Below are positions 1,110-6,151 of a stretch of DNA of 62,260 nucleotides, one piece after another; within the stretch, counting starts at the first letter, position 1, and each line of letters opens with the position of its first letter. This DNA comes from a virus. Its lineage: Duplodnaviria > Caudoviricetes. A program made the position numbers and the translations under genes. Location of the stretch: positions 1-62,260 of IMG/VR virus record IMGVR_UViG_3300048801_000006. One strand, 5' to 3'. The notes under the pieces are model-generated. The model had not been told where the DNA came from. It saw nothing but the letters and a program-made list of their open reading frames with translations, and did no database searches.

Positions 1110-4100
1110 ATGGGCTGGGGTGGACGGCGACCGGGCTCCGGCCCGAAGAAGAAAACCAACCCGCAGCGTGAGCGCGTGGTCGCGGAGACCAAGATGTCCC
1201 CGCGACCGAGCGCACCGGCAGAGCCGAAAGCCGACCCCGCCGCCGTCCCGGGCGTGGACGTGCGGGCGTGGGCCACCTTCCTCCCGGAGCTGGAGGAGCT
1301 GAGCCGCAAGTATGCGATCCAGCAGCCGCGCACCGCGGCGAACTGCCCGTTCAGGTTCCCTGACTTTCCGGAGGCTGCTGTCCCGAAGGACAAGAGCTTG
1401 ACGATGGCGATGGACAGCGGCTTGAGCAACGCCCTGACCTACAACGCCAACGCTTGGCTGCAAGGACCGGCGCTGGACGCCATGCCCGGAGAGGGCCTCC
1501 TGTTCCTCGGCTACACGTTCCTCGCGGAGCTGGCGCAGCGCCCGGAGTATCGGGTGATGAGCGAGACCATCGCGGACGACGCCACGCGGGAGTGGATCGA
1601 CTTCGACGTGGTCGGCGACGAGACCGAGCAGGAGGACGAGCGACGGAGGCAGGAGGCTGACCCGGCTGGCGAAGCGGAACGGCAGGCTGATCCGGATGAG
1701 CGGATGAAGCGGCTCGCGGCCAAGGGCAAGCTCGACAAGGTCAAGGCGCTCAAGGACGACCAGCTCCGGCTGAACGTCCGCGACCATTTCTACGAGATGT
1801 GCCGCAACGACGGCTTCTTCGGCCGCTCCCACCTGTACCTCGACATCTGGACGGGCGGAGTCGAGCCGAGCCCGGATGAGCTCAAGTCATCGATCGGCAG
1901 CGGTCGCGATCCGGCCAGCGTCACCAAGGTCACGAAGGACTCGTTCCGCGCGCTCCGGACGGTCGAGCCGGTCTGGACCTACCCGCTGATGTACAACGCC
2001 ATCGATCCGCTGCGCGCCGATTGGTACAACCCGCAGAGCTGGTACGTGATGGGCAAGGAGATTCACTGCTCTCGCCTTCAGACGTTCGTCGGCCATCCGG
2101 TCCCGGACATGCTCAAGCCGGCCTACGCGTTCGGCGGGCTCTCGCTCTCTCAGATGGCGAAGCCCTACGTCGATATCTGGCTCCAGACCCGGCAGTCGGT
2201 CGCGGACCTGATCAAGAGCTTCTCCGTCATGGTCCTGTCCACGGACTTCGGGACGACCACGCAGCCCGGAGCCGGCGGCTCCCTGCTGGCGCGCGTGGCG
2301 ATGTTCAACATGCTGCGGAACAACCAAGGCACGTTCGTCATCAACAAGAACACCGAGGACTTCAAGAACGTCACCGCGTCACTGAGTGGCCTGCACGAGC
2401 TGCAATCTCAGGCGCAGGAGCACATGGCGTCCGTGCACCGCATCCCGCTCGTCAAGTTCACCGGCATCCAGCCCGCAGGCCTGAACGCGTCGAGCGAGGG
2501 CGAGATCAAGACCTATGACGACACCATCGCGGCGTACCAGATGCGCTTCGAGGACCCGAACCTGCGCAAGATCGTCAACTTCCAGCAGCTCTCGCTGTGG
2601 GGAGAGATCGACCCGGAGATCACGTTGCGCTGGCAGCCGCTCCGCGAGATGACGCAGGCGGAGAAGGGCCAGAAGGAGAAGGACGACTCCGAGCGGCACC
2701 AGAAGTATGTCGATATGGGCGCGATCTCGCCGGCCGAGGTCCGCAAGACGATCATCGAGGACCCTGACCTGCCCTACACCGCGCTCGATCCGGAGGACGT
2801 CCCTGATCTCGCGTCTGAGGAGGAGGACGGCCTCGAGCCGGAGGGTGGCCGCCCCGATCCCAAAGCGGGAGGCGAGGAAGGCGGCGAGCCGCAGGGAGGC
2901 GGGGCTAACGATGCCGACCTCCCTTTTGGCGCGACTGACGCTGCGGAGTTCAAGGAGGATGAGCATCCTCGCGGGCCTGACGGCAAGTTCGGCTCCGGAG
3001 GCGGCGGCGCTGGGAAGGGCACTTCGATGCCCGACATCCCGGATTTCCTCAAGAAAAACAAAGGTGGGCCCGGCGGCGCTGAAAAGGGTCAAACGCTCAA
3101 GATGCCGCAGTTCGGCCTGACGCCGACGCCATACGCGAATCACCAGCCCGGCACCGGCTTCAAGCTGCCGCCGCGCAAGCCCATGCCGAAGTCGAGCGGT
3201 GAGCCCGGAGACGCCGGAAGCCTCGTCGCGTTCGGCAAGGACGCGCACGGGATCAAGGAGATCAACGGCGTCAAGTTCTCCGCGTGGGACCCGCCGAAGG
3301 ATTGGGCTGACGTCTCCGGTCAGGCGGAGATCAGCGAGCCGCCGATGCCGGAGCTGCCGAAGGGCATGATGATGTCCACCGGCTGCGTGGTCCGCGAGAA
3401 GGACGGGCGAGTGTGGCTCATGCGGCCCGCCGGCGGCTTCGGAGGCTATGACCAGACCTTCCCCAAGGGCGGGCTGGAAGAGGGCCTCTCCGGTCAGGCG
3501 AACGCCATCAAGGAGGTCTACGAGGAGACCGGGCTCAAGGTTAAGATCACGGGCTTCGCCGGAGACCATGAAGGCGACACTACCATCAGCCGCTTCTACT
3601 TCGCGGAGCGGGAGGGCGGTGATCCGGTGCACGCGGGCGGAGAGGCGGAGGGCGTGATCCTCGCGCCGCCGAGCGCGCTGCCCGGCCTCCTGAACCGGAA
3701 GCGGGACAAGCAGATCGCGGAGTCGCTCTCACCGGCCGCGCAGAAGGCGGACGCGCTCGACCCGGCCGACCTCAAGCAGATCGGCAAGAAGATGGGCACG
3801 AACGAGGGAGGCACCTTTGAGGACAAGGCCGGCAACAAGTTCTACATCAAGCGCCCGCAGACGAAGGCTCACGTCCAGAACGAACTGGCGGCAGCGCGCC
3901 TGTACCAGCTCGCGGGCGTCAACACGCTCAACTACCGTGAGGTCAAAGGCGGGAACCACGTCGCGACAGACTTGGAGAAGCTCGACAAGAAGAACGTCGC
4001 TGATCTGACGCCGGCCGAGCGGAAGGAGGCGACCAAGGACTTCGCCATCCACGCGTGGCTCGGAAACTACGACGCGGCCGGGACGGGCGGAGACAATCAG

Positions 4101-5921: not shown

Positions 5922-6151
5922 TGAGGATCACCCGCGAGGAGAACGAGAGCTTCAACGATGATGGCGTCGGCATCGGCCAGCTCGATGACGGCAGCTTGGA
6001 CACCTTCCCGTTGAGCGAGTGGCCGAAGCGCAAGGCCATGAGGGATGCGACGGAGGCGGAGACGGAGAAGGCCTTCGCCAAGGTGTTCCCGGATGACCGC
6101 GATCCGACCGAGGTCGAGGACCTCGATGACGTCTCCGACTTGGATGACTGA
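5918..6151 (+). CDS. small acidic protein, candidate immunity protein/inhibitor of the upstream ART
   Basis: Overlaps the portal-ART stop codon; very Asp/Glu-rich; occupies the position of polymorphic-toxin immunity genes. Confidence 0.5.
   Translation: MMRITREENESFNDDGVGIGQLDDGSLDTFPLSEWPKRKAMRDATEAETEKAFAKVFPDDRDPTEVEDLDDVSDLDD

Follow-up and report, generated by a model that had tools for sequence, protein, structure and literature searches.

The IMG/VR virus record IMGVR_UViG_3300048801_000006 (62,260 bases, estimated 86% complete, about 65% G+C over the first 12 kb; the whole of this stretch is called the window below) contains a gene in which a phage portal protein continues, within one open reading frame (ORF), into a NUDIX module, an atypical protein-kinase-like domain, a helical spacer and a C-terminal Tre1-like ADP-ribosyltransferase (ART) domain. 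The product is probably a phage "polyvalent" portal protein, whose cargo would be carried in the capsid and delivered. Polyvalent proteins are defined by at least two effector domains on one polypeptide of a phage or conjugative element, together with a head-packaging domain or head genes; here, three predicted enzyme domains follow the portal inside a head module. A sequence motif recurs at the cargo boundaries, and a small acidic ORF follows directly. Coordinates of all features are collected in Table 1.

Reality of the portal-cargo fusion

The gene is a single ORF of 1603 residues on the plus strand (P0001; window 1110–5921) with zero internal stop codons. The start at position 1110 is supported because the N-terminal sequence MGWGGRRPGSG... 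is conserved in the relatives P0006, P0014 and P0022. Logan contigs from four further peat-metagenome runs, a comparison that left out two runs that may be the source of the record, agree with the window over positions 1000–6300 with 0 differing letters and 0 indels. One contig (run X4) spans positions 2124–5374, covering the portal, both junction motifs, the NUDIX module, the kinase and the spacer; another spans positions 3886–6300, covering the kinase, the ART, the small ORF and the MuF gene; and the portal-cargo boundary near position 2820 is also crossed by contigs from runs X3 and X5. The fusion is real, since the contigs of the four runs agree without indels and 67 of 98 long relatives keep the portal fusion. 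It is extremely improbable that faulty assembly or sequencing merged a portal gene with an independent cargo gene downstream of it: the portals of close relatives, about 600 residues long, do stop at the position of the first junction, but the identical contigs run across position 2820 and both junctions, and the fusion is kept among relatives down to 38–40% identity.

Portal, NUDIX, spacer and ADP-ribosyltransferase domains

The portal domain is matched by Pfam family PF06381 (Phage_portal_3; residues 138–530, E = 2e-65, 221.3 bits against a cut-off of 33.8) and by the portal profile phrog_146 (residues 93–595, E = 4e-89); the TIGR01555 score of the portal-cargo protein is only 50.4 bits, against a cut-off of 196. 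The portal part only is matched by 1036 phage records. Plain portals that are 74–75% identical (among P0228–P0347) and about 600 residues long, located on contigs of about 70 kb, have no cargo and end at the position of the first junction. A basic N-terminal leader (GGxRPGxGRK...) stands before the portal domain (window 1110–1394) and is conserved, including in P0006, P0014, P0022 and P0037. In the relative P0036, a Hint match at residues 493–581 (PF13403, 27.4 bits against a cut-off of 28.4) splits the portal matches into residues 198–493 and 741–867; this insertion may be an intein in the portal.

The NUDIX fold is recognized by PF00293 at residues 756–864 (nucleotides 3375–3701) with 45.9 bits (cut-off 21.1; E = 7e-12) and, in relatives, is always preceded by a conserved stretch of about 110 residues. 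Among solved structures, an Ap4A hydrolase (3i7u) comes closest, at E = 1.1e-5. The Nudix box consensus is Gx5Ex7REUxEExGU, with catalytic glutamates; the core of the box is K-E-V-Y-E-E-T-G-L here, and the EE pair is kept.

The spacer between the kinase and the ART was modelled over 305 residues with a predicted local distance difference test score (pLDDT) of 67.7, as helices only with one long helix. A Foldseek search with this model gave no match at E ≤ 0.001, and the ESM Atlas gave no usable match. The second half of the spacer ("mid2") stands before the ART in most relatives. No fourth enzyme is seen in the spacer, and no new fold is claimed for it.

The C-terminal domain is predicted to be an R-S-E ART with Tre1 as its nearest relative. 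PF03496 (ADPrib_exo_Tox) matches residues 1411–1603 taken alone with 26.6 bits, above the cut-off of 23.4, and scores 19.3 bits, under that cut-off, in the whole 1603-residue protein. A phmmer search of the PDB with the ART found Tre1 (6dre_B, E = 5.7e-13), with the R, S and ExE motifs in register, and Vis (E = 4.7e-6). The motif residues are R1515, T-S-S at 1539–1541 and E-R-E at 1573–1575. An alignment of 16 sequences shows no variation at R1515, S1540 and E1575; E1573 does vary, and other residues occupy its position in related C-termini.

The kinase-like domain

Residues 875–1107 gave no Pfam match and no match in a sequence search of the PDB, and the Kinase-PolyVal family PF18762 gave no match at E ≤ 10 in the kinase domain or in six frames of the window. 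The AlphaFold2 model of the domain, built from a 25-sequence alignment, is of high confidence (pLDDT 93.7), and a Foldseek search with it returned 450 PDB matches at E ≤ 1e-3; those listed are kinases or pseudokinases, save two macrolide phosphotransferase entries. VIA-align, which is independent of Foldseek, gave the highest Z scores to CtkA (13.8), CotH (12.0), MavQ (11.9), PI4KII-alpha (11.5) and HipA (10.8), followed by Fam20 (10.7) and actin-fragmin kinase (9.9). These kinase matches cover 188–213 aligned residues each, and all 50 of the 50 matches listed have the kinase fold.

Within the 25 sequences, K914 (of the motif YIK) and E925 (NE) are nearly invariant (at least 90%), and H981, N986 and D988 (GNYD), D995-N996 (DN) and D1008 (LDVG) are invariant in 25 of 25. 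Judged by where they lie in the model, these residues would belong to strand 3, to helix C, to the catalytic loop and to the DFG-like position. Because of the fold matches and the conserved residues at catalytic positions, the domain looks like an active atypical kinase. It has its fold in common with CtkA, CotH, MavQ, PI4KII-alpha and HipA, and the Lys, Glu, GNxD...DN and DxG elements are conserved in the phage domain; it differs from these proteins in its phage-cargo context and shares just 9–16% identity with them, with no match at the sequence level. A literature search found nothing relevant on CtkA or CotH with phage. A PDB search with the profile of the kinase alignment returned ART matches only, because some short members of the alignment carry an ART after the kinase, and is uninformative on the kinase.

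The kinase domain is very widespread. A HMMER search against 1.84 billion representatives found 3657 kinase-domain proteins at E ≤ 1e-3, all of them cluster representatives, and 351 at E ≤ 1e-30. The domain is present in 20 cultured-phage records (phages of Pseudomonas, Escherichia, Enterobacter, Morganella, Yersinia, Aeromonas and Gordonia, and one Actinomycetia phage), where it is annotated as "hypothetical protein" or, wrongly, as "ADP-ribosyltransferase"; in Escherichia phage ECML-606-1, for example, the kinase protein has 2253 residues and an ART at its end, and Pseudomonas phage Dolphis likewise encodes a kinase-ART protein. Among GTDB genomes, the kinase is also found in Rhodobacter capsulatus, Ideonella, Massilia and others. 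Stand-alone kinase-domain proteins of 290–580 residues are encoded in chromosomes of cultured bacteria, namely R. capsulatus and its relatives (L087–L095) and Ideonella (L094–L098), and kinase-ART proteins of about 610–645 residues occur in Massilia, Collimonas and Burkholderiaceae genomes.

A first-pass annotation of the window, based on its letters and ORF translations, had proposed an uninterrupted 1603-residue ORF, and all four of its domain calls, together with the catalytic residues, were borne out. It had placed the portal at about residues 100–570, a NUDIX box at about nucleotides 3375–3730, a kinase-like domain at about 3770–4410 with the motifs listed above, and a C-terminal R-S-ExE ART with the arginine at 5652, FTSS at 5721–5732 and ERE at 5826–5834, coordinates at which these residues do lie. 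Its description of MuF as a plain separate gene also stands. Of the checks that it had suggested, modelling with AlphaFold was carried out for the kinase block, which adopts a kinase fold, and the contigs of the other four runs have neither a stop nor an indel between portal and cargo.

Relatives, module shuffling and the junction motif

A search for relatives with the cargo part (residues 620–1603) yielded 98 proteins of 881–2806 residues, the query included, on which the domains were mapped in this analysis. The portal was found in 67 of them, the kinase in 96, NUDIX in 55 and the ART in 84; portal, kinase and ART occur together in 65, and all four modules in 35. The ART lies at the C-terminus in all 84 proteins that have one, and the order of the other modules varies: in portal proteins, NUDIX precedes the kinase in 14 cases and follows it in 22. 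In some relatives, PF06381 is replaced by MuF or by a lambda-type portal.

Additional modules in these proteins include Acb1, which counters the cyclic-oligonucleotide-based antiphage signalling system (CBASS), a weak GNAT match, Hint inside the portal, LPD38 and a type IB topoisomerase. The Acb1 module (a 2H phosphoesterase, PF23474; 99 bits in P0041) is present in P0010, P0013, P0014, P0037, P0041, P0045 and P0080, and is portal-fused in all of these but P0080; the weak GNAT match is in P0041. The presence of Acb1, GNAT-like, Hint and LPD38 modules marks the chain as conflict-related cargo.

Related loci were retrieved with an alignment-based query, a single-protein query having found none. 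Across 80 IMG/VR loci, the kinase is fused to the portal, encoded in a separate large gene right after portal and MuF, or embedded in giant proteins of 5000 residues. Since these settings vary and close portals lack cargo, fusion and fission are frequent, with cargo gained and lost among close relatives. A cultured example of a shorter chain is Pseudomonas phage Orisa03 (PP179327; L083, 2270–4381), whose 704-residue "hypothetical" portal ends in the junction motif and an ART-like domain with the motifs YRG, STS and EKE.

Both cargo boundaries in the window (His codons at 2964 and 4470) carry the sequence (F)xExxHPRGPDGKF, followed by a Gly/Ser run. Across the relatives the motif takes the form (F/W)xExxHPRxxxG(K/Q)F. 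Its strict pattern is matched 117 times, spread over 70 of the 98 proteins, against 0 times when the set was shuffled 20 times; F or W at position -5 and E at position -3 are nearly fixed. It is also present in 63 of 127 kinase-bearing proteins that have no PF06381 portal, within the first 60 residues in 24 of the 63, and in several non-portal proteins it comes directly after the NCRC end of the MuF domain. Its position makes the motif a candidate processing or loading signal. A literature search on spellings of the motif found no mention of it, and the main text of PMC5512222 has 0 occurrences of "linker" or "HPR". The portal of Xanthomonas phage PhiXhv-5 also has the junction motif, followed by a tail of about 190 residues.

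The small acidic ORF

The ORF that overlaps the end of the portal-cargo gene has no Pfam, PHROG or NCBIfam family, and a word-based search found only the ORF itself. Among the fetched loci, L012, L016 and L019 each contain a homologue by jackhmmer (E = 4e-31 to 1e-20), which starts on, or at most 8 nucleotides from, the stop codon of a portal-...-ART gene. Further small acidic ORFs follow other ART-ending genes, some of them non-portal genes (L007–9, L021, L025 and L044).

For counting, small acidic ORFs were defined as those of 40–150 residues with a net charge of -5 or lower and a start between -30 and +45 nucleotides of the upstream stop; ORFs with less than 200 nucleotides of downstream sequence and near-duplicates (at least 80% identity over the last 150 residues) were left out. 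Among cargo genes, such an ORF comes after 27 of the 42 that end in an ART and after 10 of the 38 with another ending (mostly a different family of about 125 residues); among plain portals, it comes after 1 of 7. When the count is confined to the window and the IMG/VR loci, the figures are 27 of 40 for ART-ending ORFs and 25 of 303 for other ORFs of at least 400 residues, a control that includes non-coding frames of high-GC DNA.

The small ORF is a real, translationally coupled gene, and most likely encodes a partner of the ART, either an inhibitor (immunity protein) or a chaperone for folding or packaging; a role as ART partner or immunity protein fits because small acidic ORFs track ART-ending cargo genes. 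The arrangement typical of toxin-immunity pairs, in which a small gene lies directly downstream and is conserved with the toxin domain, is found in the window, L012, L016 and L019.

The small ORF was also considered as a detached portal tail. The plain portals P0241, P0244, P0245, P0253 and P0296 end in DLDD(L/V)SDLDD, and the same motif ends the small ORF (window 6110–6148). BLASTP (E = 15) and hhalign (E = 0.077) give no support for homology, and this idea also fails to explain the small ORFs after non-portal ART genes. An association of small ORFs with ART-less portals was dropped, as Pfam shows that L030, L041, L042 and L048 end in divergent ARTs. In L058, L068, L070 and L080, a different conserved ORF of about 115–132 residues (core ...F(V/H)...PDGFAWVEPAY...) lies right after kinase genes that do not end in an ART, and may be the partner of another terminal domain.

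Proposed function and alternative explanations

Portal proteins assemble as dodecamers at a single vertex of the capsid, with their C-termini turned inwards. In the proposed mechanism, the portal domain would join the ring of the procapsid and thereby bring the cargo inside the capsid. The head maturation protease, whose gene lies 1.9 kb downstream, is the most likely enzyme to free the cargo next, perhaps at or near the junction motifs; the freed cargo would exit with the DNA to modify host proteins or nucleotides early in infection, either for takeover or for counter-defence. The small acidic protein, coupled to the ART end, would inhibit the ART to protect the producing cell, or would chaperone folding or packaging. 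We infer the packaging, the 12-copy number, the cleavage, the injection, the NUDIX substrates and all of the enzyme activities. Delivery of the chain for host takeover or counter-defence fits the head-module setting and the presence of Acb1 in relatives; the link to counter-defence is drawn because Acb1 is carried in the same chain.

Several observations speak against parts of this interpretation. Since the portal stays in the capsid, the cargo must be cut from it for delivery, and packaging and ejection are argued by analogy with MuF fusions and with T4 Alt, a packaged and injected ART believed to act as infection begins (PMC9503650), as well as from what the cited papers themselves inferred. 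The cargo is dispensable for assembly, because portals of about 600 residues and 74–75% identity carry none. The Nudix box departs from the consensus, with K in place of R and the Gx5E glutamate out of register as read from the sequence, and the ART is a sequence-based prediction. As for the small ORF, only three significant sequence homologues are known from the search, and the wider set is grouped by size, charge, position, a loose GxG..DG(S/T)(L/I) core and an acidic tail. The Fisher p of 2e-16 for 27 of 40 versus 25 of 303 overstates the case, because related loci are not independent. In Orisa03, the portal-ART gene is followed directly by MuF with no small ORF, and the DLDDxSDLDD tail of the small ORF also ends some plain portals (3 of 87 by the strict pattern, two more by eye).

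Two other explanations of the cargo have to be considered. The ART is nearest to Tre1, an antibacterial type VI secretion system (T6SS) toxin, and its invariably C-terminal place with a small gene directly downstream follows the grammar of polymorphic toxins and their immunity proteins. The cargo might be a phage-borne polymorphic toxin that acts on competing bacteria or is released at lysis, with the small ORF as cognate immunity for lysogens or siblings. The prophage ART Bxa, neutralized both by a small protein that binds it and by a hydrolase (PMC11699363), would be a precedent, and kinase-bearing relatives in the chromosomes of Rhodobacter, Ideonella and Massilia are in keeping with it. 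This explanation is nevertheless considered unlikely: no integrase was found in the window (of a record 86% complete), and the chain also has NUDIX and kinase domains and, in relatives, Acb1, which point to counter-defence, not killing. A toxin and a tool of host takeover do not exclude each other.

The cargo could also stay on the portal or in the capsid, undelivered, and act on the virion or the producing cell by phosphorylating or ADP-ribosylating head proteins or DNA. CotH, whose kinase activity is directed at a protein shell (the spore coat), is the second-best structural match of the kinase, cleavage of the cargo is a prediction, and close relatives do without cargo. However, the same modules also occur in genes of their own, fused to MuF and within giant polyvalent proteins, the Acb1 of relatives targets a host immune signal, and the conserved junction motif with its flexible Gly linkers fits the release of separate modules; retention in the virion is judged very unlikely. 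Delivery of the cargo from the capsid is the explanation preferred here.

A broader proposal is put forward as a tentative possibility, more doubtful than the delivery of the cargo itself. Throughout a large group of phages, the motif (F/W)xExxHPRxxxGxF with its Gly linker might act on head cargo as an address or processing tag of general use. It would link cargo with portal, with MuF or with further cargo and stand at the head of stand-alone cargo, so that modules could be plugged in and cut apart by the head protease. In addition, the kinase-ART chain and its small acidic partner might form an undescribed three-part effector system, consisting of a new atypical kinase family, the ART and small ART inhibitors of a new family, which are left behind or released at packaging.

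Comparison with known systems

The Tre1-Tri1 pair of Serratia (T6SS; 6dre/6drh) provides the closest solved sequence relative of the phage ART, with about 150 aligned residues, and a protective gene comes after that of the toxin, as the small ORF comes after the ART here. Tri1 belongs to the ADP-ribosylhydrolase family, whereas the product of the phage ORF is a 76-residue acidic protein without a family match, and delivery here would be by the phage head instead of a T6SS. T4 Alt is a separate protein: it is loaded through a capsid-targeting sequence at its N-terminus and is cleaved by the prohead protease. It is likewise a head-packaged R-S-E ART; the ART described here, in contrast, ends a portal polypeptide and has a small coupled gene downstream. 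Polymorphic toxins of the MuF type in temperate phages were reportedly described by Jamet et al. in 2017. Like the Bxa/Bsi/BAH system (PMC11699363), those MuF toxins combine the N-terminus of a head protein, a variable C-terminal toxin and an adjacent small neutralizing protein, as does the present locus; the carrier here, however, is the portal, MuF is plain, and three enzymes are chained in place of one toxin.

Fusions of NUDIX, ART, 2H, PBECR and InPase domains to portal or MuF were reported by Iyer, Burroughs, Anand, de Souza and Aravind (2017; PMC5512222) and Iyer et al. (2022; PMC9503650), and the main texts of both papers predict packaging and injection of the fused effectors. Their polyvalent proteins resemble the protein described here in having several effector domains per polypeptide among the head genes of portal-terminase phages. 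The main text of PMC5512222 describes a kinase whose C-terminal subdomain has been lost, whereas the kinase here keeps a helical C-lobe and has no match to PF18762; neither the junction motif nor a small ORF linked to the ART is mentioned in that main text. The protein thus richly illustrates a class of phage proteins that has been described before; it does not represent a new kind of system. Three things go beyond the main texts of the two papers: how widespread the kinase is, the motif at the junctions and the small gene linked to the ART. Literature searches found nothing specific on ejected portal-ART fusions beyond PMC9503650 and nothing relevant on DUF1073 portals, and no bench study of a portal fusion was found in the literature considered.

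These comparisons also bear on the remaining claims of the first-pass annotation. Its idea of the portal as loader of an injected kit fits the Acb1-bearing relatives and the head-module location, but is not new, because the NUDIX, ART and 2H fusions and the prediction of packaging and injection are already in the main texts of PMC5512222 and PMC9503650. Its premise that toxin fusions are mainly a matter of MuF is out of date, as those texts report portal fusions. Its candidate immunity gene has gained comparative support, from three homologues in the same position, the overlapping start and stop, and the enrichment after ART ends; neutralization of the ART stays a candidate function. The annotation had overlooked that delivery requires the cargo to be severed from the portal, and that portals of 74–75% identity carry no cargo.

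Cargo fused to portal or MuF is predicted to be the first strike of a phage against host defences. The family offers testable parts, including a kinase that has gone unannotated in cultured phages of E. coli, Pseudomonas, Yersinia and Gordonia and a candidate small ART inhibitor, and the junction motif could be a long-sought loading or cleavage signal.

Gene neighbourhood

The portal-cargo gene is located in a head-morphogenesis block together with genes for a MuF-family protein, a head maturation protease and a major head protein (Table 1).

Table 1. Features of the portal-cargo locus and its neighbourhood (window positions; aa, residues of the 1603-residue protein).
Feature	Position	Residues (aa)	Strand	Basis
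Portal-cargo polyvalent gene, 1603 aa	1110..5921 (including stop codon)		+	ORF; start backed by N-terminus kept in relatives
Portal domain (PF06381 / TIGR01555 family)	1395..2819	96-570	+	Pfam, PHROGs
Junction motif 1, (F)xExxHPRxxxGKF, then Gly-rich linker	2949..2990		+	Sequence pattern
NUDIX module: N-terminal extension and NUDIX fold	3030..3734	641-750 (extension), 756-864 (fold)	+	Pfam, relatives
Atypical protein-kinase-like domain	3735..4424	876-1105	+	Conserved residues, AlphaFold2 model, structure searches
Junction motif 2, (F)xExxHPRxxxGKF, then Gly-rich linker	4455..4496		+	Sequence pattern
All-helical spacer	4515..5429	1136-1440	+	Model, relatives
R-S-E ADP-ribosyltransferase domain (predicted)	5430..5918	1441-1603	+	PF03496, Tre1 match, conserved triad
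Small acidic ORF, 76 aa (ATG 5921) or 77 aa (GTG 5918)	5921..6151		+	Start overlaps portal stop as TGATG
MuF-family head morphogenesis protein, 265 aa, without cargo	6151..6948		+	PF04233, phrog_324
Head maturation protease, candidate cargo-releasing enzyme	7779..9302		+	phrog_2229, E = 2e-115
Major head protein	10419..11534		+	phrog_264, E = 1.4e-52

The profile phrog_30637 (1119 positions) matches both the portal (profile positions 1–306) and the head protease (profile positions 725–940) and, therefore, some phages appear to fuse portal and protease.

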